DNA from: Somniosus microcephalus
Lineage: Eukaryota
Reading direction: 5' to 3'
Assembly (NCBI GenBank): GCA_052327205.1
Contig: CM126205.1
Coordinates: 258,478,001-258,542,000, forward strand
Length of the DNA stretch: 64,000 bases
The notes below the pieces were generated by a model, which was not told the DNA's origin, did not search any database, and worked only from the letters and a program-made list of their open reading frames with translations. The position numbers and the translations under genes are program-made. Shown one piece after another: positions 6,121-51,100 of the stretch (position 1 is its first letter; each line of letters begins with the position of its first letter).

Positions 6121-6329
6121 ATATAGATTTTTTAAATTTTTTTTAAAGCAATTGCGTTATGGTGAAGATAATGACACATGGGATCAAGTTCCTTAGATGA
6201 GGGCAGAAGCAAAGGGTAGCAGTAGCCAGATGTTTCTTGGACTAGAATGATTTGGTAAGAGCTGCTCAGGTTATATACTTCTGAATTACCATGTATCTAG
6301 ATAAAGAGAAAATAGAAGTCGCCGGCATG

Positions 6330-7745
6330 GATTTCAAAAGGGACGATCGTGCTTGACATAACATTTTTTGAGGAGGTAACTGATATGGCAATTGGGGGAA
6401 GTGTAGTAGATGTAGTCTACATGGACTTTAAGGAAGCTTTCAACAAGGTACCACGTTGGAGATTATTAGAGAAGAATAAGGTGTATGAAATTGTAGGAGC
6501 ATAGTAAACTAGATTAAAAATTGGTTAGAAAACAGAGAATAGGAGTTAAGGGCAGTTTTTCCACAATAGTTGGAAGTGGTGTCCCGTAGAGTTTAGTTCT
6601 CGGGCCACTTCTATTCACTGTGTATATATCAATGATTTAGATAGAGGCCTAGAGGGAGTGATGTTGAAATTTGCAGATGATGCCAAAATAGAAGCTTTAG
6701 TTAGTTCCTTAGAAGACAAAGGAAACCGCAATGGGACATTGTTAAGCTGGGGGAATGGGCTTAGAAAGTGACGGATGTCAGTGTGAGGTGATGCATTTGA
6801 TTAAAAAAAACACAAATTATACTCTGACTGGAAATAAACTCGGTACTGTGAAAGAGTACATGTTCACAGGACAATAAAGAAAGTACCTTGGATTAAAAAG
6901 GCTTTAAAACAGCTATTGGCATAGCATATAAAAGCCAAAAAGTAATGATGAGCCTATATTAAACTTTAAAACCTCAGTTAGAGCACTACTGTATTTAAAG
7001 TCATGAAAGAATGGAACAAGTTAGGTAGAACTTGACTGTTTCCAAGAAAGAAGGACCATCTATACAAAATTTAATGCAAGAGATTTAGAACAAAGTGGAA
7101 AAGAAAGACTTGCATTTATATAGCGCCTTTCATGACCACCGGACGTCCCAAAGCACTTTACAGCCAATGAAGTACTTTTGAAGTGTAGTCACTGTTGTAA
7201 TGTAGGAAGCCAATTTGCACACAGCAAGCTCCCACGAACAGCAATGTGATAATGACCAGAAAATCTGTTTTTGTTATGTTGATTGAGGGATAAATATTGG
7301 CCAGGACACCGGGGATAATTCCCCTGCTCTTCTGCAAAATAGTGCCATGGGATTTTTTCCATCCACCTGAGAGAGCAGACAGGGCTTCGGTTTAATGTCT
7401 TACCTGAAAGACGGCGCCTCTGACAGTGCAGCACTCCCTCAGCACTGCACTGGAGTGTCAGCTTAGATTTTTGTGCTCAAGTCCCTGGAGCGGGACTTGA
7501 ACCCACAACCTTCTGACTCAGAGGTGAGAGTGCTACCAACTGAGCCACAGCTGACAAACAGTAACTTCTTCAGACAGACATTTGTTGAGGTGGAAAATAT
7601 CAACATTTAAGATTAGATTGGGTAGGCAGATGAAGGAAATGGGGTTGAAGGGATATCGGAACATGCCGGGTAAATGTGATTAGAACTATTTGCTTGTGTA
7701 GAGGTTAAATGCTGACATGAACTGGCTGGGCTGAATGGTCGAAGG
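6330..7745 (+). mobile_element. Old decayed CR1 LINE, interrupted by a SINE
   Basis: Degenerate RT motifs DVVYMDFKEAFNKVP, SGVP, KFADDAK; CR1-type 3' end at ~7560-7745. Confidence 0.8.
7101..7552 (-). mobile_element. tRNA-derived DeuSINE (SacSINE1-like), full length
   Basis: Head GCTGTGGCTCAGTTGGTAGCAC..GGGTTCAAGTCCC (A/B boxes), Deu-like core GCACTGTCAGAGG..GTCTTTC..GATCCCATGGCACTATTT, tail GGCGCTATATAAATGCAAGTCTTT. Confidence 0.88.
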
Positions 7746-8907: not shown

Positions 8908-11179
8908 TAGGGTTGCAAAGGGGTGGAAAGTTTCCGGGAAATTTCCGGAAATTTTCCACGGGAAGTTTAGCTTGGGAATTTGGGGAATTTTGCCCAAAAA
9001 AGCACATGCTAGCATAATATTGTTTTTTTTGTATTTCTTTCTTTTTTTTCCCCCCACAGGTCCTCTCTTTAAAATTACTAACAGAGATGGAATCTTAATT
9101 ATTAAGGAATTCTTAATCAATATATGTTTATCTTCTTACTTGGCTTGTTTTAATAATTACAAGTTTTGTGTGTGACTGAACAAATGTGTCCTGATTGGTT
9201 GGATAAGTGGATGAGCGATTAGCTCCCTCTATTTGTAATATTTGCATATCGAATTGTGATTGGCCTGCAGGTATCTAAGACTGCTATAGTTTTTTTAAGA
9301 TCCAGGTTAGGGGTCCTGAGGGAAGTCATTTTGTTTTCTGCTGATGTTGTGATGATGCAGTAAGTAAATCAGACTTTATACCAAATAAACCAGTTACTTG
9401 TTGAACTCTGTTGTCCTTCAATTTAAAACATACAAAATAATACACTATTGGTGATGTAGCGTTGTGTGTGTACAGGTCATGCTTCCATCACATGGAGCAT
9501 CAGCAAAAATGTACTCACCCTGTTGCAATCGTGCTGATCGACCGCAGTTCGACACAGAGATGAATGCCCTTTATTTCTCTGCATAGAACAATGCCACGTT
9601 TACCGTCAGATGTGTGGAAGCATTTTACCCCAGGCATTAAAGATGGAAAGACTGTGTACATATGCAGACACTGTAGAAAGCCATATGTAAAGAATGCCAC
9701 AAAGATGCAGCAGCATTTATCCAACGATCTTGGATCACAAAAGGTCTTTGCAGTAGTTACTGACAATGCTGTGAATATGAAGTCTGCTTGGGCTCAAGTG
9801 GAGGAGGCCTACCCTCATATTACGTCTATTGGGTGCGCAGCTCATGGGCTTAACCTGCTCCTCAAGGACATCATGGGTTTGAGAACCATGGAAGCACTGT
9901 TCAAGAGAGCCAAGCAAGTTGTTAAGTATGTCAGGGGAAAACAGATAGTTGCAGCAACCTACAACTCCAAGCAAATGACGAAGAACAAGAACACCACACT
10001 GAAGCTGCCCAACAACACTAGATGGGGTGGTGTTGTCATAATGTACAACAGCCTTCTGGAGGGTAAGGAGTCGTTGCAAGAAATGGCAATATCCCAGTCT
10101 GGGGATATGGAAACCACCATCAAGAAAATACTGCTGGATGATGTGTTTTGGGAGAGAGTGGTTAGCAGCCTTAAACAACTATCACCAGTAGCATCTGCAA
10201 TTGCTCAGATTGAAGGAGATGACGCTGTCTTGTCAGATGTTCTCAGGCTTTTTACTGATTTAAAAGAACAAATCAGCATTGCCCTACCCACATCCCTGCT
10301 GCTCAAAGCAGAGGAGAAGGCAATTGTTCAATTCATACAGACGCGTCAAGAATTTTGTGTCAAGCCGATTCATGCTGCAGCATACATGCTGGACCCAAAG
10401 CATGTTGGGAGACCAATACTTTCTGGAGAACAGATCAACAGCGCTTACAGTGTGATTTCTACCCTCTCACACCATCTCAATCTGGATGTGGGCAAAGTTC
10501 TGGGAAGTCTGGCAAAGTTCTCTACCAAGCAAGGTCTATTGAATGGGCACGGGATATGGGAATCATGCAAGCATATCAGTGCACATACCTGGTGGAAGGG
10601 ACTTTGTGCACCTGAGGCCCTGTCACCTATTGCATCGGTGATACTCCAAATCCCACCTTCATCAGCGGCCTCTGAACGAAACTGGTCACTTTTTGGGAAT
10701 ACGCATACAAAGGTGCGCAACAGGCTGACTAACGAGAGAGTGGAGAAACTGGTGGCTATCCAGGCGAACCTACAATTTATTGAGCCAGATACAGAAGTGT
10801 CCACCACACAGCTAGACACTGACACAGAGGAGGAAATGGACACATCAGAGCCAGAGTCAGAGAATCAGGAGGAGCAATGAGGAGTAGAAGACTCAAAGGG
10901 ACAAAATAAGGACAAATTACAGGCTAAATAAGCTGACGCTCTTTTTATTTTATTGTAGATGGGTCTTTTTTGTGGGGGTTCAAAAAAGCTCAAAATTATA
11001 ACCTAAATAAAGTTTTGAAAGCCTGTTTTTATTTGTATGGAACAGTATGTCTATTTTGACGACAAAGATAATATAAGGGTCAGAGACAAAAACCATCAGT
11101 GTGCAAAAAAACTCAAAATTCCCGAAAATTCCCATGGAAAGTTTCCTCTTTTAAAAATTCCCAGAATTTTGCAACCCTA
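8908..11179 (+). mobile_element. hAT DNA transposon, internally deleted, both ends intact
   Basis: TIRs TAGGGTTGCAAA / TTTGCAACCCTA; perfect 8-bp TSD TTCTCTGC (8900-8907, 11180-11187); subterminal GGAAA/TTTCC arrays. Confidence 0.97.
9591..10880 (+). CDS. hAT transposase with in-frame internal deletion (partial BED finger + C-terminal catalytic part + hATC dimerisation domain)
   Basis: VWKHF..CRHC..MQQHL is fused directly to VVTDNAVNM; CAAHGLNL, TRW, AAYMLDP, WW and SSAASERNWS motifs follow. The ATG at 9591 follows a splice acceptor (TTTCTCTGCATAG, 9586); donor GTAAGT at 9360. Confidence 0.88.
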   Translation: MPRLPSDVWKHFTPGIKDGKTVYICRHCRKPYVKNATKMQQHLSNDLGSQKVFAVVTDNAVNMKSAWAQVEEAYPHITSIGCAAHGLNLLLKDIMGLRTMEALFKRAKQVVKYVRGKQIVAATYNSKQMTKNKNTTLKLPNNTRWGGVVIMYNSLLEGKESLQEMAISQSGDMETTIKKILLDDVFWERVVSSLKQLSPVASAIAQIEGDDAVLSDVLRLFTDLKEQISIALPTSLLLKAEEKAIVQFIQTRQEFCVKPIHAAAYMLDPKHVGRPILSGEQINSAYSVISTLSHHLNLDVGKVLGSLAKFSTKQGLLNGHGIWESCKHISAHTWWKGLCAPEALSPIASVILQIPPSSAASERNWSLFGNTHTKVRNRLTNERVEKLVAIQANLQFIEPDTEVSTTQLDTDTEEEMDTSEPESENQEEQ

Positions 11180-19743: not shown

Positions 19744-20094
19744 GGCAGCACGGTGGCATAGTGGTTAGCACTGTTGCCTCTCAGCACCAGGGACCCGGGT
19801 TCGAATCCGGCCTCGGGCGACTGTCTGTGGAGTTTGCACATTCTCCCCGTGTTTGCGTGGGTTTTCTCCGGGTGCTCCGGTTTCCTCCCACAGTCCAAAG
19901 ATGTGCGGGTTAGGTTGATTGGCTATGATAAATTGACCCTTAGTGTTAGGGGGATTAAATACGTGGGGTTACGGGGATAGGGTGGGATATGTGTTGGTGT
20001 AGGGGTTACGGGGATCGGGTGGGATATGTGTCGGTGCAGGCTCGATGGGCCGAAATGGCCTCTATCTGCACTGTGGGGTTTCTGGGATTTCTGG
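19744..20094 (+). mobile_element. HE1-like V-SINE, full length
   Basis: tRNA head (TGGCATAGTGG; GGTTCGAATCC), V domain GGAGTTTGCACATTCTCCCCGTG..TCCGGTTTCCTCCCACAGTCCAAAGA, CR1-derived tail CTCGATGGGCCGAAATGGCC; flanked by GATTATGG. Confidence 0.93.
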
Positions 20095-21329
20095 GATTAT
20101 GGTAGCTGTTATTTATCCCTCTTAGTACCAGCAGAGTGTCGGTTCCAAGAAACATTCTGTGCATTGTGCAGCTTTTTGAAACATTTACTCTTCTGAGAAC
20201 TGGAAGGCACAAAGTATTTGCTCTTAAGTGCTAGTTTTATAATCTAGTCCTGGCAGAGGGAATTAAATTGTCTGCATGTTTAGCATCACGAGTACATTTT
20301 GTTGAAGTGTTAATCCACCTTTTCATACAGTTAATCCTCTTGAAAGAAATGTTTATCGTAATTTAACGCATTTAGGTGGGTTTTATACTGTACCAGCTAA
20401 TTAATACAGCATTCTTCCATTCATACTTTAATACCATGGATAAATTAAGATAAGCACTCTGGAAAATAAGTTTAAATGTAGAAGTCTGCAAAAGTATTTT
20501 TAAGATATGAGGTTTCCAACCTATCCTATATCTCCAAGACCTGAACAAATCCCTAACGAGGGAAGATTTCAAGAGGATTGCTGTACCACGTCATCCACCT
20601 TTCTCTCCCTTAAAACAGACATGGGTTACAGACTGGAGCTGGTTCTCATCAACATCGGTGTATGTCATGGTTAATTAACAGTTATTGCCAAGTTGGGTGA
20701 AGTGTAAGGGAGTAAACCTTTTGCATACTAACATCAAATTTAGAGATCTTGGCTTTTCCTTTCCTATTTGCACTCCACACACTTTGGAGCTATAACAGTA
20801 CTGTAATACTGAAGTTATTTTTTCTTACATTTATTCAGTTTTGATCTTGCATGTGTGGGGAAAAATACAGCTAAATGTAATTAATACACTGTTAATGATA
20901 TTATCATCTACAATGCAGACCTGCAATGTATTACAGAACTAAACTATTCTATCTACACAAACTGATCACTTAAATTTTGAGCTCCTTACTAATTGTTACA
21001 TTTTTGAGTCTTTCTGAATTTCTTACCCGAGATTATTTTGGCTCTTGGATTCTTCTCCTTGCTGAATCCCAAAACTGTCTTTCTAAACTTTGAAATCTAT
21101 GTAAGATTTTTGTAATGTGCATGAATAAGCAAAAAGTGAGCACTGTCTGGTAACTGCTTTTGGTACTGGACTGTCTTGTGCCTCTAAGATCCCACTTTCA
21201 GTCTTTAAAGATGAAAGATGCTCACAGCAGACATTGTATTTTGAGTTTAAAGTATTAACTGAACATATTATTAAACAATTGTAAGAAGTCACACAACACC
21301 AGGTTATAGTCCAACAGTTTTATTTGAAA

Positions 21330-22558: not shown

Positions 22559-23280
22559 CCCCACCTGACGTTGGGTCATCCAGACTCGAGTCGTCGTTGG
22601 CTTGTTCTCTCTACACAGATGCGGCCGGAACTGCTGTGATTTCCAGCAAAAGAAATGTTTTTTTGTCTTTTTTGTTTTTCATACAGACCCCAGCATCTGC
22701 AACATTTGACCCCTTGTGACCCCACCTCCTTGTTCTTTGATGTAACGTTTTCCTGACTGACCTGTTTGGACACCATTCACACCTTTGATTGCTGTGATTA
22801 TCTCTCTGCCGAGGTGTGATAAATGGCAGTTAGAAAGATTACCTGTAACCATCTGGCATTATTCTCTGACTATATAAGCTGTGTTGTGCATTGAGTGCTG
22901 CTAGAGTTTGGTAAGAGGGAGAAAAGTCATTTAAGTGTATTTTGTGAATTTTAGTGTGTTAAAAAGTTAATTATTTGAAGTGTGTTTAATTTTTAAGTGT
23001 ATATTAAACTGTTGGGGAGTTTGAACTGGAAGTAGAATCAGGGTATAAAAGGGGCGGGACTAGTGCGTGTGCATGGAGTGCTGTGCATTGAGTGCTGCTA
23101 GAGTTTGGTAAGGGAGAGTTCGGGCAAGTGGGAGGTGAGGGTGTGTTTTTGCTCTGTTTTGTTCCCCACTCCCAGGCTTAGACAGCACTGCGGAAGCGGA
23201 GCAGCGAGACGAGTCAACCAAACAGGCCCCACAGACAGTATTCAAGGAGGAGGTTGGTGATCAGCTGGTTGGTTGGTTTT

Positions 23281-26200
23281 ATACATAGATACATAGAAGA
23301 TAGGAGCAGGAGTAGGCCATTCGGCCCTTCGTGCCTGCTCCGCCATTCGATGAGATCATGGCTGATCCTTTAATTCAGTATCCCGTCCCCGCCTTCTCTC
23401 CGTAACCCTTAACCCCTTTTGCCCGTAGAAATATATCTAATTCCCTCTTAAATATATTTAATGAGCTGGCGTACACTGCCCTCTGTGGCAATGAGTTCCA
23501 CAGGTTCACCACTCTCTGAGTGAAGAAATTCCCCCTCATCTCTGTCCTAAATGGTTTAGCCCTTATCCTTAAATTATGTCCTCTAGTTCTGTTCTCACCC
23601 GCCAAGGGAAACATTCCTTCTGCATCCAGTCTGTCTAGACCTGTCAGAATTTTATACACTTCTATGAGGTCCCCTCTCAATCTTCTAAACTCCAGTGTGT
23701 ACATCCCTAAACTACATAGTCTCTCCTCATAGGTCATTCCCGCCATTCCTGGTATCAGCCTGGTGAATCGCCGCTGCACCCCCTCCATGGCAAGAACATC
23801 CTTCCTCAGATGAGGCGACCAAAACTGTACACAGTACTCGAGGTGTGGTCTCACCAGTGCCCTGTACAGCTGCAGCAAGGTATCCCTGTTCCTGTATTCT
23901 AACCCTTTTGCTATGAAGGCCAGCATACCGTTTGCCTTCTTGACCGCCTGTTGCACCTGCATGCTCGCCTTCAGTGACTGGTGTACAAGAACACCCAGGT
24001 CTCTCTGTACTTCCCCCTCTCCCAATCTATTGCCATTTAAATAATAATTTGCCCTCCCGTTCCTGCACCCAAGGTGGATAACTTCGCACTTGTCCACATT
24101 ATAGTGCATCTGCCATTTATCCGCCCAATCGCCCAGTCTGTCCAAATCGCTCTGGAGCTTCCTGGTCTCTTCCTCTGAGCCCACCCCCCCTCCTAGTTTA
24201 GTGTCGTCTGCAAATTTGGAAATGCTGCATCCGACTCCCTGATCCAGGTCATTAATGTAAATTGTGAACAGCTGGGGGCCCAGGACAGATCCCTGTGGTA
24301 CCCCACTTGTTACTGCCTGCCATTCAGAAAATGAGCCGTTTATTCCAACTCTCTGTTTTCTATCTGACAGCCAGTTCCCTATCCACGCCAAAACTTTCCC
24401 CTTTATCCCATGAGCCTCAATTTTCCATGCTAATCTTTTATGTGGGACCTTATCGAAGGCCTTTTGGAAGTCCAGGTACACCACATCTACTGGCTCTCCC
24501 CCATCTATTCTACCAGTTACTCCCTCAAAAAATTCCAATAGATTAGTCAAGCACGATTTACCCTTTGTAAATCCATGTTGACTCTGTCCTATCCTGTCCC
24601 CATTTGCTAAGTGCTCCGCTATTTCATCCTTAATGATGGACTCCAGCATTTTGCCCACAACTGATGTAAGGCTTACAGGTCTGTAATTACCTGCTTTTTC
24701 CCTACCCCCCTTTTTGAATAGTGGGGTAACGTTAGCTACCCTCCAATCCATCGGCACTGTTCCCGAGTCTAATGAATTCTGAAAAATCATCCTTAGTGCA
24801 TCCGCTATCTCTAGGGCCACCTCCTTCAGTACCCTAGGATGCATGTTATCAGGCCCTGGGGATTTGTCCACCTTCAATCCCTTTAGCTTCCTTAACACCA
24901 TATCCTTAGAGATATTGATTTGCGTCAGTTCCTCCTTTGCCAATGTCCCTATTTTTCCCGATATCCCAGGGAGGTTTTTTGTGTCTTCCTTCGTAAAGAC
25001 TGACCCAAAGTATGCATTTAGTTGATCTGCCATTTCCTTATTTCCCATTATATATTCCCCCGTATCTGACTGCAATGGACCAACTTTGGTTTTCACCAGT
25101 CTTTTCCTTTTGATATATTTATAAAAGCTTTTGGAGTTAGTTTTTATATTTTCCGCCAGCTTGTTTTCGTAAGCTATTTTGCCCCTCTTGATCATGCCCT
25201 TTGCCCTCCTTTGCTCTATCTTAAACTGTTCCCAATCTTCCGCTCTGGCGCTTTTTTTGGCTATTTTATACGCCCTATCTTTGGATTTTATGCTGTCTCT
25301 AATTTCCCCTGTTATCCACGGTTGAGTCACCTTTCTAGATTTCCTTTTATGCCAGATTGGTATAAACAATTTTTGCAATTTTGTCATTCTATCTTTAAAT
25401 GTTTGCCATTGTTTATCTACCTCCAGTCCTCCCAGGAACGTTGTCCAATCAGACCTACTCAGTTCCCGTCTCATGGCATCATAATTCCCCTTGTTTAAAT
25501 TCAGGACCTTAGTCTCTGAGTCAATTTCTTCGCTCTCCATTTCGAGTGAGAAATCGATCATGTTATGATCGCTCTGACCCAAGGGTCCCCGTACAACAAG
25601 ATTACTGATTAGTCCCTTCTCATTGCACAGTACCCAGTCCAATATAGCCTGTTCCCGAGTTGGTTCCTCGACATATTGATCCAGATAACCATCCCTTAAA
25701 CACTCAAGGAATTCCTCCTCCTCATTATTTTTACTGATTAGGCTAGTCCAATCTATATGTAAGTTAAAGTCACCTATGATGACAGCTGTGCTCTTATTGC
25801 ACGCTTCTCTAATTTCCCTCGTGATGCCCTCCCTAACCTCTATTTTACTATTTGGAGGCCTATATACCACTCCTATTAATGTTTTTCGCCCCTCGCTATT
25901 TCTTAGCTCCACCCATATAGATTCTGTATTAACTGAGTTAATATCCTTCTTTTCAATTGCATTTATCCCCTCTTTTACTAGCAATGCTACCCCTCCTCCC
26001 TTTCTTTTTTGTCGATCCTTCCTAAATACTGAATACCCCTGTATGTTAAGCTCCCAGCCCTGCTCACCCTGCAACCATGTTTCCGTAATCCCAATTAGAT
26101 CATAATTATTAACCTCTATTTCCACAGCTAATTCATCTACCTTGTTCCTGATGCTTCTCGCATTAAGGTATAAAACCCTCAGGCTTTTTTTATGCTCACA

Positions 26201-26326
26201 TTTTTTATGAATTAGTTTGGCCCTTTGTTTTTTGTTCCTCACCCTTTTACCATTTATTTCTGTCTGCCTTTCACTTTCCTCTATTTCACTACATAGGTTT
26301 CTAGCCCCCTGCCATACTAGTTTAAA
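23281..26326 (-). mobile_element. CR1 LINE (copy B), 5'-truncated at the ORF1/ORF2 junction, young
   Basis: Uninterrupted ORF2, CR1 3' stem and (TATGTATC)n tail; host copy A resumes at 26327. Confidence 0.95.
23375..26326 (-). CDS. CR1 ORF2, AP endonuclease + reverse transcriptase, intact
   Basis: YLNARSIRNK, ITETWL, GDFN, SDH; NYRPVSLTS, LDFQKAFDKV, GVPQGSVLGP, FADD. The listed 955-aa ORF starts at a GTG (26242), but the frame stays open 28 codons further to TTT AAA at 26326. Confidence 0.95.
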   Translation of the reverse strand, partial: FKLVWQGARNLCSEIEESERQTEINGKRVRNKKQRAKLIHKKCEHKKSLRVLYLNARSIRNKVDELAVEIEVNNYDLIGITETWLQGEQGWELNIQGYSVFRKDRQKRKGGGVALLVKEGINAIEKKDINSVNTESIWVELRNSEGRKTLIGVVYRPPNSKIEVREGITREIREACNKSTAVIIGDFNLHIDWTSLISKNNEEEEFLECLRDGYLDQYVEEPTREQAILDWVLCNEKGLISNLVVRGPLGQSDHNMIDFSLEMESEEIDSETKVLNLNKGNYDAMRRELSRSDWTTFLGGLEVDKQWQTFKDRMTKLQKLFIPIWHKRKSRKVTQPWITGEIRDSIKSKDRAYKIAKKSARAEDWEQFKIEQRRAKGMIKRGKIAYENKLAENIKTNSKSFYKYIKRKRLVKTKVGPLQSDTGEYIMGNKEMADQLNAYFGSVFTKEDTKNLPGISGKIGTLAKEELTQINISKDMVLRKLKGLKVDKSPGPDNMHPRVLKEVALEIADALRMIFQNSLDSGTVPMDWRVANVTPLFKKGGREKAGNYRPVSLTSVVGKMLESIIKDEIAEHLANGDRIGQSQHGFTKGKSCLTNLLEFFEGVTGRIDGGEPVDVVYLDFQKAFDKVPHKRLAWKIEAHGIKGKVLAWIGNWLSDRKQRVGINGSFSEWQAVTSGVPQGSVLGPQLFTIYINDLDQGVGCSISKFADDTKLGGGVGSEEETRKLQSDLDRLGDWADKWQMHYNVDKCEVIHLGCRNGRANYYLNGNRLGEGEVQRDLGVLVHQSLKASMQVQQAVKKANGMLAFIAKGLEYRNRDTLLQLYRALVRPHLEYCVQFWSPHLRKDVLAMEGVQRRFTRLIPGMAGMTYEERLCSLGMYTLEFRRLRGDLIEVYKILTGLDRLDAEGMFPLAGENRTRGHNLRIRAKPFRTEMRGNFFTQRVVNLWNSLPQRAVYASSLNIFKRELDIFLRAKGVKGYGEKAGTGY

Positions 26327-26447
26327 TGCTTCTCTTTTATTCCTTTAAGTTGGTAAGTCCTATTGAATAGTGGTGTAATAGTATCATCTATATCGGGGCA
26401 AAGGGTCTTCATAACTAATAATAATAAATTTAATTAATTACATAGAT

Positions 26448-27395
26448 ATGGGTGAACAGGTGATGTGTCACTGTTGCGAAATGTGGGAGCTGGTGGACCC
26501 CATTGAGGCTCACAGTGATTACATTTGCGATAAGTGTTTGCTGCTAGAGGAACTCAACCTCCATGTTAAAGAGCTTGAGACCGAGCTTCAGACACTGCGA
26601 CACATCAGGGAGGGGGAGAAGTTCCTGGACTCTATGTTGCAGGAGGTGGTCACACCTATGAAATTAATTACTGTAGATGTAGTCCGTGGTCAGGGACAGG
26701 ACGGTGTGACTACAAGTGAGGAAAGGGATCCAGGATGTAGTGTTGAAGGAGACGCAGCCCTTGCTCTTGTCAAGCAGGATCGAGGTTCTTACTCCCTGTG
26801 AGGGTGGGAGCGGGGACTGCAGGGAGGATGAGCAACCTGGCCACAGCACCGTGGAACAGGGGGCCATTCAAGTGGAGGGAGTAAAAAGAAATGTTGTAGT
26901 GGTAGGGGATAGTATCATTAGGGGGATAGATAGGGTTCTCTGCAGTTGAGAGCGGGAGTCCCGAAGGCTGTGTTGCCTGCCCGGTGCCAGGGTTAAGGAC
27001 ATCTCTTCTGTGCTGGAAAGAAACTTGGAGTGGGAGGGGGAGGATCCAGTTGTCGTGGTCCATGTTGGTACAAACGACGTAGATAGGACAAGGAAGATGG
27101 TTCTGTTAAAGGAGTATGAGCAGCTAGGGGTCAAATTAAAAAACAGAACCTCAAGGGTAATAATCTCTGGGTTATTACCTGAGCCACGAGCAAATTTGGC
27201 TAGGATAAATAAAAAGAGTTAAATGCGTGGCTCAAAGACTGGTGTGGGAGAAATGGGTTTTGCTTCTTGGGACACTGGCACCAGTACTGGGACAGGAGGG
27301 AGCTGTTCCGTTGGGACGGACTCCACTTGGCCAGTGCTGGGACTAGAGTCCTGGCGAATCATATAACTAGGGCTGTAGAGAGGGCTTTAAACTAA
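26448..27395 (+). pseudogene. CR1 ORF1 (zinc finger, coiled coil, SGNH esterase), disrupted
   Basis: CHCCEMWE..YICDKC, leucine-zipper heptads, VVVGDSIIRG, VHVGTND, DGLHL; ends RALN*; contains frameshifts and a stop. Confidence 0.88.
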
Positions 27396-30388
27396 TTAGT
27401 GGGGGGAAGGTTTCTCGAGAGCAAATAATAGAAATGACAACGGAGAAGGTCATAGACTTGGGTAGCAGTGGGGGAATTAAAAAACAGAACGTGTCAGGAA
27501 GGGACAGAAGGTATGGAGTAAAAAGTAAAGCACTAAAAGGGGAAAAAACAGGAACTAAGTGTTACAAAACATATTTGAAAGTTCTTTATCTGAATGCACG
27601 TAGCATTCGTAACAAAATGAATGAGTTAACGGCACAAATAACGACATATGGGTATGATCTTGTGGCCATTACAGAAACATGGCTGCAGGGTGACCATGAC
27701 TGTTAAATAACCTGGTATGTTTAAGTCCCAATCAGGAAGGACAGGCAGGAAGGGAGGGGAGGTGGGGTGGCTATGTTAATAAAGGAAGGAATCACTATAA
27801 TACAGAGAAATGATATTGGGTCAAAGGAGCAGGATAGTGAAACAGTTTGGGTGGAGATAAGGAATAATAAGGGGGAAAAAAACACTAGTGGGTGAAGTCT
27901 ATAGGCCTCCGAACAGTTGCAACTCTGTTGGACGGAGTATTAATCAGGAAATAGTTGAGGCTTGTAATAAGGGAACAGCTATAATTATGGGGGATTTTAA
28001 TTATCATATTAACTGGACAAATCAAATTGGGCAGAGCAGCCTTGAGGATGAGTTCATTGAGTGTATTAGGGATGGGTTTCTTGAGCAGTATGTAACTGAA
28101 CCAACCGGGGGCAAGCAACCTTAGATTTGGTCCTGTGTAATGAGACAGGATTAATTAAAAATGTCCTAGTAAAGGATCCCCTTGGAATGAGTGACCATAA
28201 CATGGTTGAATTCCATATTCAATTAGAGGGTGAGAAGGTTGGATCTCAAACAAGCGTGCTGAGCTTGAATAAAGGAGACTATGAAGGTATGAGAGCGGAA
28301 TTGAGTAGAGTGGACTGGGAAAATAGATTAAAGGGTAAGACGGTACATGATCAGTGGTGTACATTTAAGGAGTTATTTTACAACTTCCAAAAAATATATA
28401 TTCCACTGAGGGGAAAAAAGGGTGTAAAAGAAAAGATAGCCATCCGTGGCTAAGTAAAGTAATTAAGGATAGTATCCGACTAAAAACAAGGGCATATAAG
28501 GTAGCCAAATCTAGTGGGAGGATAGAAGATTGGGAAGTCTTTAAAAGACAGCAAAAAATAACTAAAAGATTGATTAAGAAAGGGAAGATAGATTATGAAA
28601 GTAAATTAGCAAAAAATATAAAAACAGACAGCAAAAGTTTCTATAGTTATATAAAAAGTAGAAGGGTGGCTAAAGTAAATGTTGGTCCCTTAGAGGATGA
28701 GACCGGGAAATTAATGGTGGGAAACATGGAGATGGCAAAAACGCTGAACAATTATTTTGTATCAGTCTTTACGGTAGAGGACACTAAGAATATCCCAACA
28801 CTGGACAAACAGGGGGCCCTAGGGGGGGAGGAGCTAAATACGATTAAAATCACTAAGGATGTGGTACTTGGTAAAATAATGGGACTCAAGGCGGATAAAT
28901 CCCCTGGACCTGATGGCTTGCATCCTAGGGTCTTGAGGGAAGTGGCGGTAGGGATTGTGGATGCATTGGTAATAATTTTCCAAAACTCCCTGGACTCAGC
29001 AAAGGTCCCGGCAGATTGGAAAACTGCTAATGTAACACCCTTATTTAAAAAGGGTAGTAGGCAGAAGGCTGGAAACTATAGACCTGTTAGCCTAACATCT
29101 GTGGTTGGTAAAATGTTAGAGTCCATTATTAAGGAGACAGTAACGGGACATTTGGATAAACATAATTTAATAGGACAAACTCAGCATGGTTTCATGAAGG
29201 GGAAGTCATGTTTGACAAATTTGCTTGAGTTCTTTGAGGAAGTAACATACAGGGTGGATAAAGGGGAACCAGTGGACGTAGTGTATTTAGACTTCCAAAA
29301 GGCATTTGACAAGGTGCCACACAAAAGATTATTGCTCAAGATAAAAAAAAATCACGGGATTGGGGGTAATATTCTGGCGTGGGTGGAGGATTGGCTCTCT
29401 AACAGAAAGCAGAGAGTTGGGATAAATGGTTCGTTCTCAGACTGGCAACCAGTAACTAGTGGTGTTCCGCAGGGGTCAGTGCTGGGTCCCCAACTCTTTA
29501 CAATCTATATTAACGATTTGGAGGAGGGAACCGAGTGTAGCATATCAAAGTTTGCAGATGATACAAAGATGGGACGGAAAGTAGTGAGTGAGGAGGACAT
29601 AAAAAACCTGCAAAGGGACATAGACAGGCTAAATAAGTGGGCAGAGATTTGGCAGATGGAATACAATACTGGAAAGTGTGAGGTTATGCACTTTGGCAGG
29701 AAAAATCATCGAGCAAGTTATTATCTTGATGGCAAGAAACTGGAAAGTACTGTAGTACAAAGGGATCTGGGGGTCCTGGTGCACGAAACTCAAAAAGTTA
29801 GTATGCAGGTGCAGCAAGTGATCAAGAAGGCCAATGGAATGTTGGCTTTTATTGCTAGGGGGATAGAATATAAAAACAGGGAGGTATTGCTGCAGTTGTA
29901 CAAGGTATTGGTGAGACTGCACCTGGAATACTGCATACAGTTTTGGTGTCCATACTTAAGAAAAGACATACTTGCTCTCGAGTCAGTACAAAGAAGGTTC
30001 ACTCGGTTAATCCCGGGGGTGATGGGGTGGTCATATGAGGAGAGGTTGAGTAGATTGGGCCTCTACTCATTGGAGTTCAGAAGAATGAGAGGCGATCTTA
30101 TTGAAACATATAAGATTGTGAAGGGGCTTGATCGGGTGGATGCGGTGAGGATGTTCCTAATGATGGGTGAAACTAGAACTAGGGGGCATAATCTTAGAAT
30201 AAGGGGCTGCTCTTTCAAAACTGAGATGAGGAGAAACTTCTTCACTCAGGGTGGTAGGTTTGTGGAATTTGCTGCCCCAGAAAGCTGTGGAAGCTACATC
30301 ATTAAATAAATTTAAAACAGAAATAGATAGTTTCCTAGAAGTAAAGGGAATTAAGGGTTACGGGGAGCGGGCAGGAAATTGGACATGA
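27386..30388 (+). pseudogene. CR1 ORF2 (EN-RT), disrupted
   Basis: ORF pieces 27434-27706, 27888-28453 and 28570-30309 carry all EN/RT motifs, with several frameshifts. Confidence 0.92.
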
Positions 30389-30574
30389 GTCTAGGTTCGG
30401 CATGGTCATGGCCCTGTGGGTAGTGGAGTGGGCCCAGGGGCCGTGTAGCCTGGTTCTGCTCCTACTGTGTTCTAATTCTGTGTTAGATTTCAGGAGATGG
30501 TTTTATTCCTGTTCCTGGCTGGGGTGGAGATCGCCTTTACAGAAGGTAAGTACTGTAGAAAATATAGGGACAGC

Positions 30575-30694
30575 GTGATCTCCTGGACGAGTTTCGATCG
30601 CCTAGATGGGTCGGAGAGGAATTTCCCAGATTTTTTTCTCCCAAATTGGCCATTGGGTCTTTTATCTGGTTTTTCGCCTCTCCCGGGAGATCAC
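30575..30694 (+). other. Predicted multi-helix RNA structure in CR1 3' UTR
   Basis: GTGATCTCCTGG/CCGGGAGATCAC closing helix enclosing TTCGATC/GGTCGGA, GAGG/CCTC, CCAGAT/ATCTGG and CCCAA/TTGGG. Confidence 0.6.
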
Positions 30695-32070
30695 ATGGGC
30701 TCGGGTGGATGGGGAGTGATAGAAGATTTGAGGTTAGGATCAGATCAGCCATGATCTTATTGAATGGTGGAGCAGGCTCGAGGGGCCGATTGGCCTACTC
30801 CTGCTCCTATTTCTTATGTTCTTATGAATAATCAAACTGTTACATATTTACAGTAGTGAAGTAGTTCTATAATTTTAGTTATAAGTCTAACTCCCCAACA
30901 AGACTAAATAATAAAAATATATTTTGATTCTAAATGGGTCATTAGAAGATCCAAGAGAGAAACTGTGGTTGTCTCCTTTCTTCATTTTAATTCTAAGGGA
31001 ATCCCTGTGAATCTGAGATCACTGCTTATCCCTGTGTCATTTCCTGAAAGTCTGTCCTTTGTCGAATATCAAATATAGAGCAAACCATCATTTGATGAAC
31101 CAATCTTGCTGGAACATGCATTAGGTCATAGAAAATGTGTTTGTTATTTGCCTGTTCACATTTCTAGGTCATTGTGCGCCCTCAGCAATAACCAGGGTCA
31201 ATTTTGTCTGGCATCGGTGCTTCTTGTGCGTCTCCTGTGACAAGCTGCAGATTTCTGCTTTTTTAAGTGAATATTCCAGGAGAAGCCACCACATTGACCA
31301 TAATCAGAAATATTTGCAAAAATATACCACAATGCATCTAATTTACACAGTAGAAAGTTTTGTTAGTTTCTAATTCTTACCAAGCAGTAGGAGTTCTCTT
31401 CAGGAAGTCAGCATTCTTCACACCATTTCTGAAGTTTGGTGCTGAAATGTAGCATTTCATCAATCACCCTCTGCTTCCAGCATCACCTGCTGCTTCACTA
31501 AAAACACAAAATAGCCTGGGCATCTGGGGCCTTGCTGAATAGTTAAATGATGCTCTTCTTCATTCAGACCTCCCTCATAAACTGTGAACTGTTCCAGTCT
31601 TGTTTGGTTCATGGAAATAGCTTTCTATTTGTCCTGATATCTTTGGGATAGCTCCCTCATGTGACCCTTCCCAATATACTCAGGACTTCTGCAGTATCTA
31701 GTTCTTCACCCTCTTCTCCCCCACCCCAAAATTTGAGATGGTTATCCACACTTCCAGCATCACTTTAATTAAACTTTGAGACAAGCTCTGCAGTTCTTAC
31801 GGGTTCTCAGAGGTAGAAGCACAGTGTTTAGTCCTTGTGCTTGGTTATACTTTCATCTGTCTTTTTGGTTTTTCTCTTCAAATTGGCCAGACAAACTCCT
31901 GCGATTGCAGACTTTCTGCTGAAGTTAAATTAGTTTTATATCAAGGGACACCAAATTCAGAATGCAGATACTGATTGTAATATTCTATGCTCAATTTAAT
32001 GGCTCTTGGGGTGCCACAATCAATTTTTTTTTTAAGAGCTGGATACATTTGTCATGTAATGTTAAATTCA

Positions 32071-33644: not shown

Positions 33645-33980
33645 CAGGAAACTTTGGTTTATCCGGAGGTTGTATGTCCGGAAACCTCGATCTAACGGCA
33701 GAAATCAGCAGCCGTTTTGGTTAGGTTTTTTTTCTTCTAGCATTTTTTTTTTTTAACAGTCAGGCTCTGGAAAGCGTCTCTGTAGCTTAGCAACAGCTTC
33801 AGAGATGCTTCCAAGGTACGGGCCGAGTGTTTACAAGCTGTTGCTAAGCAACAGTGTTTGTTGTCAGATACGGAGATGAAAACCTCCGTATCCTTCAACA
33901 TTAGCGCTGGTCTATCCGGAAGTTTTGATAGATCGGCAGCAGCTCGGTCCCATCAGTGCCGGATATCGCGAAGTTTCCTG
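33645..33980. mobile_element. TA-targeting MITE, copy 3
   Basis: TA|CAGGAAACTT...AAGTTTCCTG|TA; palindromes at 33782 and 33840. Confidence 0.93.
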
Positions 33981-35577
33981 TACTAGAAAGGCTGGGCATG
34001 CTTAGCGTGGATAAGTTGCCTGGTCCAGATGGCTTGCATCCCAGGTTGCTAAGGGAATTGGGGGAGGAGATAGTGGAAGGGTTTGCCATAATTTTTCAAT
34101 CTTCCCTAAATGCGGGGGAGGTGCCTGAGGATTGGAAAGTAGCAAATGTGACACCATTGTTCAAGAAAGGGTGTAAGGACAATCCTAGTAACTACAGGCT
34201 GGTCAGTTTAACATCAGTGGTGGGTAAAGTTTTAGAAACAAGTTTTTCCTTGATTTTTAACGGGCACTTGGAGAGGTTTAAGCAAATTAAGGAGAGCCAA
34301 CATGGATTTGTAAAAGGTAGATCGTGTTTGACTAATCTAATTGAATTTTTTGATGAAGTAACAGGGAGGATTGATGAAGGGAATGCAATGGATGTTGTCT
34401 ACATGGATTTTTGGAAGGCATGTGACAAAGTACCACCTAGAAGGCTGCTTAACAAAATTGAGGCTCATGGAATAGGTGGGTCAGTGGCAGCTTGGATAAG
34501 GAATTGGCTTAAGGACAGAAAACAGCGAGTTGTGGTAAATGGCTGTTTTTCAGACTAGAGGATGGTAGACAATGGGTTTCCCCAAGGGTCACTGCTTTTT
34601 TTGTTAAACCTGGATATTCGAATACAGAGTAGAATTTCTAAATTTGCCGATGACACCAAACTTGGCGGTGTGGCAAACGGTGAGGATGATGCCAATCGAC
34701 TGAAACAGGACATAGAAAGACTAGTAGAATGGGCAGACAAGTGACAGATGGAATTTAATACAGAGAAGTGTGAGGTGATGCATTTTGGCAGAAGGAACAG
34801 GGAGAGGCAATATACAGTTAATGGCACAGTTTTAAAGAGTGTGCAGGGACAGATGGACCTGGGAGTTAATGTGCATAGGTCCCTGAAGGTGGCTGGACAT
34901 ACTGAGAGAGTGGTTAGCAAAGCATATGGGATCTTGGGCTTCATAAATAGAGGTATTGAGTACAAAAGTAGAGAAGTTATGCTGAACCTTTATAAAGCGC
35001 TGTTTACGCAACAACTGAAGTATTGCATCCAGTTCTGGTCACCACACTTTAGGAAGGATGTGAAGGCACTTGAGAGGGAATAGAGGAGATTTACCAGAAT
35101 GGTTCCGGGGATGGGGATCTTAGCTACAAGGACAGGTTGGAGAAGCTGGATTTGCTTTCATTAGAGCAAAGGAGGTTGCAGGGTGATTTGATAGAGATGT
35201 ACAAGATTATGACAGATTTGGATAGACATGGGGAAAGTCTGTTCCCACTAGTTGACGGTACAAGGACTAGGGGACACAGATTTAAGGTTTTGGGCAAGAG
35301 ATACAGGGGGTATGTGAGGAAAACTTTTTTACGCAGCGAGTGGTGAGGACCTGGAACTCGCTGCGGACGGACGTGGTGGAAGCGGACACACTCAATGTTT
35401 TCAAGGGGAGACTGGATAGACACTTGGAAATAAACTTGCAGGGCTACGGAGATAGAACGGGGGAATGGGACTGACTGAATTGTTATACAGAGAGCCAGCA
35501 CGGACTCGATGGGCCAAATGACGACGACCTGTGCCGTTATGACTGTATATGAAGAGACAATGAAAAAGTTCTGTTTT

Positions 35578-45400: not shown

Positions 45401-48174
45401 GGCTAAAGATGATGATGGCATTTTTCGCTGTAGTTTATACGCAACATCCTATTGTGGTTCAATAAAAAATTTTCAACAAAAATAACCTGAATTTTTGTTC
45501 TGTATTTCTGTTGAAATTTGATCAAAGCTGTACCGTATGTATGTATTGCGTGCTCAATAATGAACTTACTTTACAGTCAAATAATGACCAACAAAGCTTT
45601 TCAATGCAACTGGTCATTGACGATGTCAACTAAATGTTTATTATGTGAGCATTCATAATATTTGAAAACAAATTGGCACTTTTTTTTTTAAGTGCCAGAG
45701 GAGTAATGGGTGATTTAGTCTCAAACCTGGGCAGGTAATGGGAATGTATTGTGCTTGCCAATTTAAATGAAATAATGAAATGGCAATGTATATTTCAGCT
45801 CTTCCCTTGAATCAGGCCATTCTGCCAGCATGTTGTAGATGTAGGTGTATTATGTTGGACATCTACTTTAAAAGATTTGTCAATGAATTTCTTTCCCTTA
45901 ATTTGGTTGTAGGGCTGCCTGTCAGTAACCTATACAAGTCCCTACTTGAGGCAGTCTTCTATAAGTACAGCTGTTAGCAATGTTTTAGGGTTACATGTCT
46001 TCATACCATTCATGTAACACAAATTATTCTTTCACCAATCTTAGATATTTTATAGAAAATGATTCCATGCTGTCTTTGTAATTATTGAAGCAAGAGGAAA
46101 ACACTTTCAGTTCATACTGGCTTCTGTTGGGGCAGGGATGGAAGAGGCTCTTTAAAACAAAGGACCTAATAATTAGTTGGAATATGTCGAATTAATTTTC
46201 CGACAATCTAATACAGACCACTTACATTTTCAAAGCTCAATTTCAAACAAAATGTCAAGTATCATTTCTATTCAAACTTCTTTCAATTCTACATATTCAT
46301 TGTATTTTAAAGTTACTGAGTGTGTCACAAAATTCCATTTCAGAATGCATTGAGAAGTTCTATGCCATTCCACCTCGATGGGAAAGCCTATTAGAAAAGT
46401 GTCAATATTTACCTGTTGAACCTGGTAGGTGGTGCTTTGATTGCCATTTCTAATGGTAAAAGCTCTGTCACACAGTTAATGCAAACCCCAGCACAGTAAC
46501 TATTCTTGCTCTTAAAAGTCAGCATGTGTGTGAGTATGCAGCTCTAACAAATTCGCAACTTAAAAAAAAAAAGTGCCCCAATGACTTAATAATCTGGCCT
46601 CTTCATACCCCCCATGCTCTAAGGTTCCCCATGTCCATGTGGCTGATGGTGTTGGTGGCACTAAAGCCCCAAATTGGTCCCTCTGATTAATTAATTAAAA
46701 TAAAATAGGTGGGCTGCTATCTCTACTCATGCTGTTCATTGATAGCTTGCCTAATTTTTTTGGGGGGGGTGCCTCAATATCACAGGTTGATGCCATTTAA
46801 AGGCAGCCTGCACCTCTTAAAGATGCAATACACTTTGGCTGCAGGCACCCATAACTGAAGATTGTGGGCAATGTCAGGCACAGGAGAATCTGCAAGGGCT
46901 CTCTGGTTTTTCTGACGCTGTGTTGGAGGTATTGGTGAAGGAAGTCGGCAGGAGGAGGGACAACTTCCACCCACCAGGAAGATATCAAGGCAAGTGCCCA
47001 ACACAAGTGGGAAGAGAGGGTCGGTGCCAGAAGTATCGCTCCCAGGATATGGTTGCAGTGCAGGAAAAAGTGGAATGACCTGACAAGGTTAGCTAAGGTA
47101 AGCCTCCTAACTCGTATCTCTCATTACTCTGGTTAACCTTAACTAGCTGTTGCCGTGGCACTCGCAACCCTTCTCACACGGTTACCAACCCTTTCCTCCA
47201 ATGATTGCAGCACACTTAACTTCACCTCCTTCAGATGATCCTGCAGCACTCTGCACCTGCTGCTCTCCTCAATATTATTTCATCACCTCCTCACACCTCT
47301 GCCACCTTTAACACGAGCAACGCTATTCTACCCTGACATACACGTCCTGAAAACTTACTACTACAACAATGACACACTCCCTTATTTCTTGCAGCGCACA
47401 CTTGCACGCAGTAACTGGAAGTAGGCCACCATTCATCCATGTGCTGCCCCACTTGAACAGGTTATGGGCATTGTGGGCATGTCAGGAGCATAGCATCTGG
47501 TGAGGCTGCAGGAAAAGCCCTGTAGTGTTGTATACCATCTACCCCTCATTCCCTTCTCACTTAAATCTCAGCCTTGCATATTTTACATGACATTGCTGCT
47601 GTTTTCAGAAGCCACTCGTCTGTCTCTGCTTACCCATGCTATTGAATGCTAACCCTTGGCCCTATCTTCCATTACATATCCAGAAGCTCCACACAGCTCT
47701 CAGGGAGCAGAAGTGGTGCTGCAGCCACTGGGGAACCACCTCGGAGCATTAGAATACATAACTGCGCACACAAGACAGGCAGGCACTAGGCATTTGCACA
47801 GGAGTGCTTTGTAGATAGGCATCAGTCATGTAACCATTTGTCAAGATGTGTTTTTTGGAGTAGTGAAGGAAAATGATTTGTTTTGGTACTGCTGTTGATA
47901 TTCAGCCTTAGTGATGTAACAGGAACAAACATGAAGTTGTATATTTTGAGGGCATTGATCTGACGAGTGTTAGGGTTTGGTCTGATGGAAGGAGGGAGTG
48001 TTGGTGCTCTAGGGAGGGGATGGGTGGTTTAGGAGAATCTTTCCAGACTAATTTGCTGCCTTACTGCTCTGACAGCTTTTGCAATACTACTGTGTCATGT
48101 TCTTCCTCTGAATTCTCCGGTTCTTCATCTTCTAGCTCCACGTTTTCCTTTGCAGGAAGCGCCAAGACCACTCC

Positions 48175-51100
48175 CTCAGAGCGGCAGCGGTGGCGGACCT
48201 GTGAGGGGCGAGGCTCGGGTAGGCCTCCGAGCAGCGGCGGTGATAAAAACAGCGGCGAGGCTCAGGTAAGCCTCAGAGCGGCGGCGGACCTGTGAGGAGC
48301 GAGGCGGTGGCGGTGATAAAAGCAGCGGCGAGGCTCAGGTAGGCTTACCAATCTCCGAGCTCAGAGGGAGGGAGAGAAGTAAAAAGTAATCGAAGTGTGA
48401 CGTCACCAGAAAGCAGGTAAGTGATTGGTTGGTCAGTACTTCTCTCTTTTTTAAACTTAAACTCTGTGGTTTATAGTTTCTAAGCTCTCTGTGGTGTAGC
48501 GGGGACTGTTGGTAAACCAGGGCCCTTAAGTATATCATTTAACTGTAGTGTAATTGCTGGGATTGATTTGATTTGATTTAATTTAATTTAATTTGAATTA
48601 ATTAAAGGGTAAGTCATGGCAGAAGAGCTCGGCCCCGTGGTATGCTCCTCCTGCACTATGTGGGAAATCAGGGACACTTCCTGTGTCCCTGACGACCATG
48701 TGTGCAAGAAGTGTATCCAGCTGCAGCTACTGGCAGACCGCATTGTGGCTGGATACATACTGGACCATTCGCAATGCTGAGGACGTCGTGGATATCACGT
48801 TTAATCAGTTGGTCACACCGCAGGTAAAGGTTGCACAGGCAGAAAGGGAATGGGTGACCAACAGGCAGAGTAGTAGGCGCAGGCAGGTAGTGCAGGAGTC
48901 CCCTGTGGGCATCCTCCTCTCAAACAGATATACCACTTTGAATACTGTTGAGGGGGATGGCTTATCAGGGAAAAGCAGCAGCAGCCAACTTCCTGGCACC
49001 AGGGGTGGTTCTGCAGCACAGGACGGGAGGAAAAAGAGAGGCAGAGCTATAGTAATAGGGGATTCTATTGTAAGGGGAATAGATAGGCGTTTCTGCGGCC
49101 ACAAATGAGACTCCAGGATGGTGTGTTGCCTCCCTGGTGCAAGGGTCAAGGATGTCTCCGAGCGGCTGCAGAACATTTTGGAAGGGGAGGGTGAACAGCC
49201 AGTTGTCATGGTGCATATAGGTACCAACGATAGAGGTAAAAAATGGGATGCGGTCCTAAAAGCAGCACGGTGGCATAGTGGTTAGCACTGTTGCCTCACA
49301 GCGCCAGGGACCCGGGTTCGAATCCGGCCTCGGGTGACTGTCTGTGTGGAGTTTGCACATTCTCCCCGTGTTTGCGTGGGTTTCCTCTGGGTGCTCTGGT
49401 TTCCTCCCACAGTCCAAAGATGTGCGGGTTAGGTTGATTGGCTATGATAAATTGACCCTTAGCGTTAGGGGGATTAAATACGTGGGGTTACGGGGATCGG
49501 GTGGGATATGTGTCGGTGCAGGCTCGATGGGCTGAAATGGCCTCTATCTGCACTGTGGGGTTTCTGTGTTTCTGTGAATATAGGGAGTTAGGAGGTAAAT
49601 TTTAAAAAATAGGACCTCAAAGGTAGTAATCTCAAGATTGCTACCAGTGCCACGTGCTAGTCAGAGTAGAAATAGAAGGATATTTCAGATGAATACATGG
49701 CTAGAGGAATGGTGCAAGGGGGAGGGATTCAAATTCCTGGGACGGTTTGCACCTGGGCAGGGCCGGGACCGATGTCCTAGGGGGAGTGTTTGCTAGTGCT
49801 CTGGGGGAGGGTTTAAACTAAAATGGCAGGGGGTTAGGAACCTGAGCAGGGAGACAGAGGAAAGGGAAACAAGGATAAAAGCAAAAGATAGGAAGGAGAA
49901 AAACAAAAGTGGCAGTCAGAGAAATCAACGGTTTAAATCAAACATGGCCACAGTAAATAATAATTCAAAAAGGTCTAAGAGCATTAAAAAAAACAAGCCT
50001 GAAGGCTTTGTGTCTTAATGCGAGGAGCATTCGTAATAAGGTAGATGAATTAGCTGCACAAATAGAGGTAAACGAATATGGTTTGATTGGGATTATGCAA
50101 ACCTGGCTCCAGGGTGGCCAAGGCTGGGAACTCAACATGATTCAGGAAAGATGGGCAAAAAGGAAAGGGAGGTGGGGTAGCATTGCTGGTTAAAGAGGGG
50201 ATTAACACAATTGTAAGGAAGGATATTAGCTCTGATGATGTGGAATCTGTATGGGTAGAACTGAGAAATACCAAGGGGCAGAAAACGTTAGTGGGAGTGG
50301 TATATAGACCCCCAAACAGTAATGCGGAGGTTGGGGATGGCATTAAAAGGGAAATTAGAGAAGCGTGCAATAAGGGCACAGCAGTTATCATGGGTGACTT
50401 TAATCTACATATAGATTGGGCTAACCAAATTAGTAACAATACTGTGGAGGAGGAATTCCTGGAGTGTTTACGGGATGGTTTCCTGGACCAATATGTCGAG
50501 GAACCAACTAGAGATCAGGCCATCTTAGACTGGGTATTATGTAATGAGAAAGGATTAATTAGCAATCTTGTTGTACGAGGCCCCTTGGATCAGAACGATC
50601 ATAATATGATAGAATTCTTCATTAAGATGGAGAGTGAAGTAGTTGACTCAGAGACTAGGGTCCTGAATTTAAGTAAAGGAAACTACGATGGTATGAAGCG
50701 TGAGTTAGGTAGGATTGATTGGGGAATGTCACTCAAAGGGTTGACGGTGGATAGGCAATGGCAAACATTCAAAGACTGCATGGATGAACTACAGAATTTG
50801 CTCATCCCAGTTTGGCATAAAAATAAAACAAAAAAGGTGACTCAACCATGACTAACAAGGGAAATTAGGGATAGCATAAGATCCAAGGAGAGGACATATA
50901 AATTATCCAGAAAAAGCAGTAAACCTGAGGATTGGAAGCAGTTTAGGATTCCACAAAGGAGGACAAAGGGATTAATTAAGAAGGGGAAAATAGAGTATGA
51001 GAGTAAGCTTTCAGGGAACATAAAAACTGACTGTAAAAGCTTTTATAGATATGTGAAGAGAAAAAGATTGGTGAAGTCAAGCGTAGGTCCCTTGCAGTCA

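Follow-up and report, generated by a model that had tools for sequence, protein, structure and literature searches.

A truncated CR1 copy in Somniosus microcephalus and the probable programmed -1 frameshift junction between ORF1 and ORF2 of its relatives

The CR1 group of LINE retrotransposons makes up 22-34% of shark and ray genomes (PMC13343379). Within this group, the closest described counterpart of the locus considered here is canonical CR1 with a zinc-finger/esterase ORF1 (CR1 subgroup 7, ORF1 type IVB; PMC4120745), which is characterized by an ORF2 combining an APE endonuclease with a reverse transcriptase (RT), a 3' tail of short repeats, and 5' truncation. A term search of the available text of PMC4120745 and PMC13343379 gave 0 matches for "frameshift" and nothing on ORF2 translation. 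Among APE-type non-LTR elements, TRE5-A and TRE3-A of Dictyostelium are stated in a figure legend to require a -1 frameshift for ORF2 (PMC5911963). These elements target tRNA genes and belong to another lineage, that of amoebae, and the likeness drawn here lies in the need for a -1 shift.

Further parallels are found in viruses. The U_UUA_AAC heptamer of the coronavirus IBV and the retroviral gag-pol junction combine a slippery heptamer in a defined phase with read-through of a minority of ribosomes into the polymerase. In some retroviruses the layout is similar to that described below, with a stop codon directly after the heptamer. Two other routes to ORF2 are known from LINEs: UAAUG coupling in SART1 and reinitiation in L1, which likewise concern a bicistronic LINE RNA and, in UAAUG, a -1 geometry, and the 2A/StopGo route, another form of recoding.

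The window analyzed is the whole stretch of 64,000 nucleotides of Somniosus microcephalus contig CM126205.1 (assembly GCA_052327205.1, positions 258,478,001 to 258,542,000), and all coordinates refer to positions within it. The CR1 copies that bear on the ORF1-ORF2 junction are designated elements A, B and C, and their features are as follows.

23281..26326, minus strand: element A, a 5'-truncated CR1 LINE of 3046 nt, consisting of ORF2 and a 3' UTR.
23375..26326, minus strand: intact ORF2 of element A, 983 codons, with APE endonuclease (PF03372/PF14529) and RT (PF00078).
26320..26326, minus strand: slippery heptamer U_UUA_AAC, the first bases of element A; its phase, taken from B and C, fits a -1 shift into ORF2.
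26317..26319, minus strand: TAG directly 3' of the heptamer, the putative ORF1 stop; ORF1 of B, C and 11 outside loci ends homologously in Leu-Asn-stop.
26186..26316, minus strand: linker of element A, open in the ORF2 frame, purine-rich and poorly conserved, with no in-frame ATG.
23281..23374, minus strand: 3' UTR of element A, ending in short tandem 8-nt repeats without poly(A).
23040..23280, plus strand: element B, the host CR1, 5' UTR to the left of the insertion (start approximate).
26327..30831, plus strand: element B continued, with the remaining 5' UTR, a broken putative zinc-finger/esterase ORF1 and a broken ORF2; 67% identical to A.
27386..27395, plus strand: junction of element B, TTTAAAC followed by TAA, with ORF1 ending in Ala-Leu-Asn-stop.
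49812..49821, plus strand: junction of element C (~48170-52880, 80% identical to A), TTTAAAC followed by TAA, with ORF1 ending in Gly-Leu-Asn-stop.

As a locus, element A is an ordinary truncated CR1 copy. It contains neither ORF1 nor a promoter and, consequently, cannot use the heptamer signal itself. Its coding capacity corresponds to that of the CR1 clade, with an N-terminal APE endonuclease and an RT in ORF2 and a tandem-repeat 3' end. A 3' end in short tandem repeats without poly(A) is a feature of this clade, and the 3' terminus of element A is common to B, C and D. The nearest named proteins come from rays and sharks (Leucoraja, Hypanus, Pristiophorus, Cetorhinus, Scyliorhinus). The best explanation of element A is a young insertion that keeps the ORF2 of its source element. 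Other 5'-truncated CR1 fragments are present at 55538-57064 (minus), 33962-35462 (plus) and 6326-6850 (plus), none of which extends to the ORF1-ORF2 junction.

The initial annotation held that the ORF2 frame is open back to TTTAAAC (26326-26320), that TAG (26319-26317) follows the heptamer, and that no in-frame Met precedes the YLNARS and ITETW motifs of the endonuclease, the first being located in SDHNM. These statements, together with the peptide quoted for the linker, proved correct. The minus-strand frame 23375-26344 comprises 989 codons without a stop, or 983 codons plus a stop when counted from the heptamer, and its first ATG lies at 25561, codon 256, within SDHNM. A profile of the endonuclease N-terminus matched L1 endonuclease structures with an E-value of 5e-10, while a single-sequence search of the PDB gave no match. 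In the profile alignment, the N of YLNARS, the E of ITETW and the D of GDFN correspond to residues 14, 43 and 145 of the solved L1 endonuclease chains, which are presumably the catalytic ones. Since these Asn, Glu and Asp motifs are all N-terminal of the first in-frame Met, a protein begun at codon 256 would miss them.

The part of the junction missing from element A can be read from its neighbors. Element A is inserted antisense into the 5' UTR of element B, a degenerate full-length CR1 (~23040-30831). ORF1 of both B and C has a Cys-pair N-terminus and seems GDS-esterase-like; a fragment of B ORF1 matched OSK (SGNH-like) with an E-value of 8e-4, under the cut-off, and GDSL matches were obtained in related loci. 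In both elements ORF2 reads Phe-Lys-Leu one base back from the Leu-Asn-stop of ORF1 (T TTA AAC TAA), and a stop closes the ORF2 frame five codons 5' of the heptamer, 3' of which it is open. In B this frame is open from five codons 5' of the heptamer through YLNARS, and in C a single 1-nt break interrupts it within an A-run immediately ahead of the endonuclease. The junction phase in B and C is that of a tandem -1 slip on U_UUA_AAC, and an in-phase heptamer is present in 3/3 window copies that extend to the junction, the phase of A being deduced from B and C. The earlier identification of TAG as the ORF1 stop is probable by homology with the ORF1 ends at 27386 and 49812, as element A has no ORF1 of its own. 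An ATG lies in frame in the linker of B (27434) and in that of C (49944), which argues against taking element A alone as proof. ORF1 of element C also carries a SINE-like insertion (49262-49581, plus), 85% identical to 19745-20100.

A cross-lineage comparison blind to the heptamer was based on loci fetched by the endonuclease N-terminus only: the best 80 of at least 287 confirmed metagenome stretches and 10/10 from genome contigs. These 90 loci are 28-54% identical, and their ORF1 types include GDSL esterase and PHD as well as unassigned ones. An ORF2 open for at least 100 codons and an upstream ORF of at least 200 codons were required, so that 43/90 loci passed and 47/90 failed; clustering at 70% identity reduced the 43 loci to 30 clusters. 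ORF2 lies in the -1 frame relative to ORF1 in 39/43 loci and 27/30 clusters, and 26 of the 27 overlap. The four clusters outside the overlap test include two same-frame, one +1, and one non-overlapping 2A type. An overlapping -1 ORF2 is thus found in 26/30 clusters, fully in B, up to the 1-nt break in C, and by deduction in A.

The position of the heptamer within the overlap is phase-specific. A strict XXXYYYZ heptamer in the correct phase was found in 19/26 clusters, compared with 3 and 2 in the other phases, the lineages in this and the codon tests sharing ancestry. ORF-body rates predict 1.7-3.5 (a count of 19 arose in 0/200,000 simulations), and codon shuffling under the condition that neither frame closes predicts 5.6. 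When GGA, GGT or GTT was admitted as the first triplet, the correct phase gave 23/26 against 4 and 7 in the other phases, with 3.6-8.7 expected. A stop in the ORF2 frame lies 1-26 codons (median 5) 5' of the heptamer, and 20-117 codons are open 3' of it. The frame between the ORF1 stop and either the first Met or the endonuclease is open in 13/14 (expected 2.8). The first motif Asn is preceded by a Met in 9/26 clusters, compared with 19.6 expected from base composition, and 17/26 lineages reach the endonuclease motif without a Met.

Sites identified through protein motifs of ORF1 carried slippery codons in 12/13, 6/6, 6/7 and 7/10 clusters, with 0.3-0.9 expected for each; the motifs were selected after the data had been seen, and L063, one of the 12 hits, falls outside the overlap and is a chance match. 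The conservation of the putative shift site lies in its nucleotides: the amino acid in front of Leu-Asn can be S, V, A, N, H, Y, F or G, yet the third base of its codon is constantly T. Moreover, five different heptamers alternate among lineages, three of which are among the shiftiest for mammalian ribosomes (PMC5009743). In an endonuclease tree of 79/90 loci and shark and ray proteins, U_UUA_AAC and U_UUU_UUA alternate in one clade and G_GAA_AAC and A_AAA_AAC in another, with the heptamers of the two clades at two different ORF1 positions. The overlap of ORF1 and ORF2 reaches 60-270 nt in many lineages; in those with A_AAA_AAC and G_GAA_AAC, the heptamer lies 63-201 nt before the ORF1 stop, and ORF2 is open from the heptamer on.

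Three of the 26 clusters (L020, L033, L044) have a -1 overlap with a non-canonical G-run site only. The PHD-ORF1 clade (L020, L033, L039, L043, L044, L048, L053, L054, L056, L063), often without Met, has ORF2 overlapping ORF1 in the -1 frame by 76-115 nt. At the place of its conserved G_GGG_GA(C/A), L063 carries G_GGA_AAC. The G-run position is homologous to G_GAA_AAC, and the motif is a candidate non-canonical shift site. Six other loci (L071, L072, L074, L076, L079, L085) carry NPGP just before the endonuclease, as in 2A/StopGo LINEs, and make up a branch of their own with no heptamer inside an overlap, whereas D-x-E-x-NPGP is absent from the translations of A, B and C. Viral contigs contained 0 relatives among 105 stretches and 0 pattern matches. 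Two contigs of cartilaginous-fish-like CR1 (L081, L082) occur in a bacterial type-strain assembly (G001), evidently as contamination, and the contaminated genome of L081 contained no further junction.

Elements A, B and C differ from the viral cassettes in that no hairpin or pseudoknot stimulator was detected and in that the stop lies directly 3' of the heptamer. A stimulator would be expected 5-9 nt downstream. Folded without pseudoknots, the downstream RNA of A, B and C did no better than shuffled sequences (z -0.28, 0.25 and -1.19; 0.48, -1.61 and -0.78 in a second run). The linker of element A (26220-26316) likewise gave no stable fold (z 0.48). Over 43 sites, the downstream z was -0.60, compared with 0.04 in a control window (Wilcoxon p 0.06; 10 against 6 sites below -1.5), which amounts to a weak excess of hairpins. 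Clear hairpins 6-11 nt downstream are present in some lineages, for example L010, L014, L017, L018 and L083, or at ~10/43 sites; no pairs were obtained when 10 hairpin loci picked by hand were folded to a consensus. Among 10 sequences examined for G-quadruplexes, L005 and L006 each have one predicted 3' of the heptamer and L045 one at a greater distance, and none was predicted in A, B and C. Long-range pairing between a G-run and the 3' UTR was dropped as a candidate, as another duplex was better in both A and C.

Taken as a whole, the phase, the open linker, the lack of an AUG in A, the nucleotide-level conservation and the heptamer turnover in relatives suggest that the junction kept by element A is probably a programmed -1 frameshift site. 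In a full-length source element, ribosomes would translate ORF1 up to U_UUA_AAC, where the Leu and Asn tRNAs would slip back by one base. The majority of ribosomes would terminate at the adjacent stop, while a minority would go on in the -1 frame via the linker and produce an ORF1-ORF2 fusion resembling Gag-Pol, and consequently no AUG would be required for ORF2. The adjacent stop may substitute for a structural stimulator. The shifting itself, its rate and the fusion protein are inferred. The initial annotation had regarded the missing AUG as support for frameshifting or non-AUG expression; the former gains its support from the cross-lineage comparison rather than from element A, and non-AUG scanning, including to the GTG in the ORF2 frame at 26242, is weak because three out-of-frame ATGs (26315, 26294, 26253) come first. 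In a predicted Hypanus protein (P0004), a single frame covers the ORF1 esterase, Phe-Lys-Leu and the endonuclease; the protein represents a mutated copy or a gene-model correction.

The alternative that survives best, although it is considered improbable, is termination-reinitiation, in which ribosomes stop at the end of ORF1 and restart nearby in the -1 frame, using an overlapping AUG where present and elsewhere independently of AUG. Reinitiation is the accepted route to LINE ORF2 (PMC2881922), and the UAAUG junction is established for SART1 (PMC2699510). The Hypanus lineage of P0104 and P0105, known here from protein alone, reads Phe-Lys-Leu-Met, which implies a stop-start overlap of the SART1 kind at the end of ORF1. 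Since Ile, Asp, Val or Lys stands at this place in other near relatives, the Met of this ray lineage may be incidental or may reflect a second route. The ATT at the stop-overlap position of element B and the lack of a stimulator fold in A, B and C also suit reinitiation. In contrast, the UAAUG overlap of the SART1 type is absent from the A, B and C junctions: the codon at the stop-overlap position is GTA in A and AAA in C, and GAT or GGT in most outside loci. In CHV1, mutation of the AUG of UAAUG lowered expression to 7-8% (PMC2699510). Furthermore, reinitiation does not need an ORF2 that is open from heptamers far upstream of the ORF1 stop, and it predicts neither phase-specific heptamers nor their turnover. 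An out-of-frame mini-ORF of four codons, Met-Ala-Gly-Gly-stop, follows the ORF1 stop in A (26315-26301, minus) and C (49823-49837, plus). It is probably a by-product of linker codons and would divert reinitiating ribosomes.

A much less likely alternative is that ORF2 has its own start, either an AUG lost in element A or the GTG at 26242, and that the heptamer is a by-product of the residues at the end of ORF1. The linker ATGs of B and C, the latter in good context, are in line with this reading, and none of the 40 listed of 674 read differences covers the linker of A. However, 983 unbroken codons imply a young copy, in which the loss of one specific codon is unlikely, and the region around the ATG of C shows a poor alignment to A. 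The out-of-frame ATGs 5' of the GTG and the many lineages without Met before the endonuclease motif also stand against an own start, as does the constant third base beneath a variable residue against a by-product. The initial "Met" of several database proteins was rejected as evidence of a start, the M of P0007 being Val in P0149. Finally, a spliced transcript linking an upstream AUG to ORF2 is hardly credible, since, despite donor-like GGTAAG motifs in the 5' UTRs of B and C, GT..AG ends occur in 0/15 joints listed (29 further joints), RNA reads among those listed fall only on empty-site joints, and splicing leaves the open linker from an in-phase heptamer unexplained.

A separate question is why element A ends at the heptamer. 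That it does so was correctly noted before, within a margin of 0-2 nt that arises because host copies vary at that place, and the sequence past 26326 is the plus-strand 5' UTR of element B. The accompanying proposal of microhomology with a TTT(T)AAA target found no support in other copies of the host family. Their joints, seen in contigs and RNA reads, connect 23278-23280 to 26329-26332 with 6-9 letters in between, without element A; these letters are pyrimidines with at most one TG, none of them is an A, and no TTTAAA occurs. The main joint (23280 to 26329) has a depth of 81.9 and is spanned by 18 and 41 reads, where the RNA reads, matched at 88%, stand for the host family and not for this locus. 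Unless this locus departed from its family, TTT(T)AAA was therefore missing from the target, and the heptamer came in with element A. No target duplication is visible on the host-family joints, on which a 4-nt TTTA duplication was rejected. A twin-priming 5' inversion, with A head to head with a plus-strand ORF1, was also rejected, as that sequence runs on into its own ORF2, 67% identical, and as host copies join across the insertion.

The end of element A at the heptamer is probably a coincidence. A causal end, through target microhomology or through RNA cleavage at paused ribosomes that leaves an ORF2-only template, is unlikely. An end within 0-2 nt of the heptamer start would be expected at ~0.15% per copy for a 7-nt window and a uniform end over ~4.7 kb, and microhomology at 5' junctions is known for mammalian elements (PMC2881922). 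Nevertheless, this is a single case noticed post hoc, and the host copies show no TTTAAA at the insertion site. B, C and all 11 outside loci with an in-phase TTTAAAC-stop retain ORF1-like sequence upstream, in contigs biased to long forms, and among 18 of 30 matches listed there is no pile-up of beginnings or ends near 26326. The additional step by which ribosome pausing at the heptamer would lead to RNA cleavage and a pile-up of 5' truncations is very doubtful.

The window also contains an intact Gag-like ORF of 468 codons with PNMA and a CCHC zinc knuckle (239-1645, minus), whose downstream part lies beyond the window, and a hAT transposase ORF of 438 codons with a BED finger, DUF659 and a dimerisation domain (9564-10880, plus), which seems shorter than a full transposase.

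With regard to CR1 elements in general, the balance tips slightly toward -1 frameshifting as the ancestral and usual route to ORF2 of CR1-clade LINEs across animals. The working RT would then be an ORF1-ORF2 fusion like Gag-Pol, the signal would have changed between at least five heptamers and taken up different places in ORF1, and the CR1s of vertebrates would shift without a conventional stimulator by using the adjacent stop. The difference from published canonical CR1 is that the -1 signal is general in the present sample. The present analysis contributes controls for phase, for codons and across lineages, and it sets the microhomology idea aside. The earliest accounts of CR1 from chicken and turtle, dating from the 1990s, may already propose a frameshift. 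No report of frameshifting in CR1 was found in the available text of PMC5009743, PMC5911963, PMC1925062, PMC2699510, PMC4837594, PMC4255032, PMC13343379, PMC4120745 and PMC2881922, older subscription work such as these first descriptions being beyond the reach of the search.

CR1 predominates among the retrotransposons of most vertebrates, and reviews present the translation of LINE ORF2 as reinitiation (PMC2881922). If the frameshift reading is true, the definition of an intact CR1 would change, and annotation from the first Met would be seen to remove the endonuclease. Frameshifting would set the ratio of ORF1 to ORF2 and account for the tie of ORF1 to the polymerase, and many natural eukaryotic shift signals would be gained.
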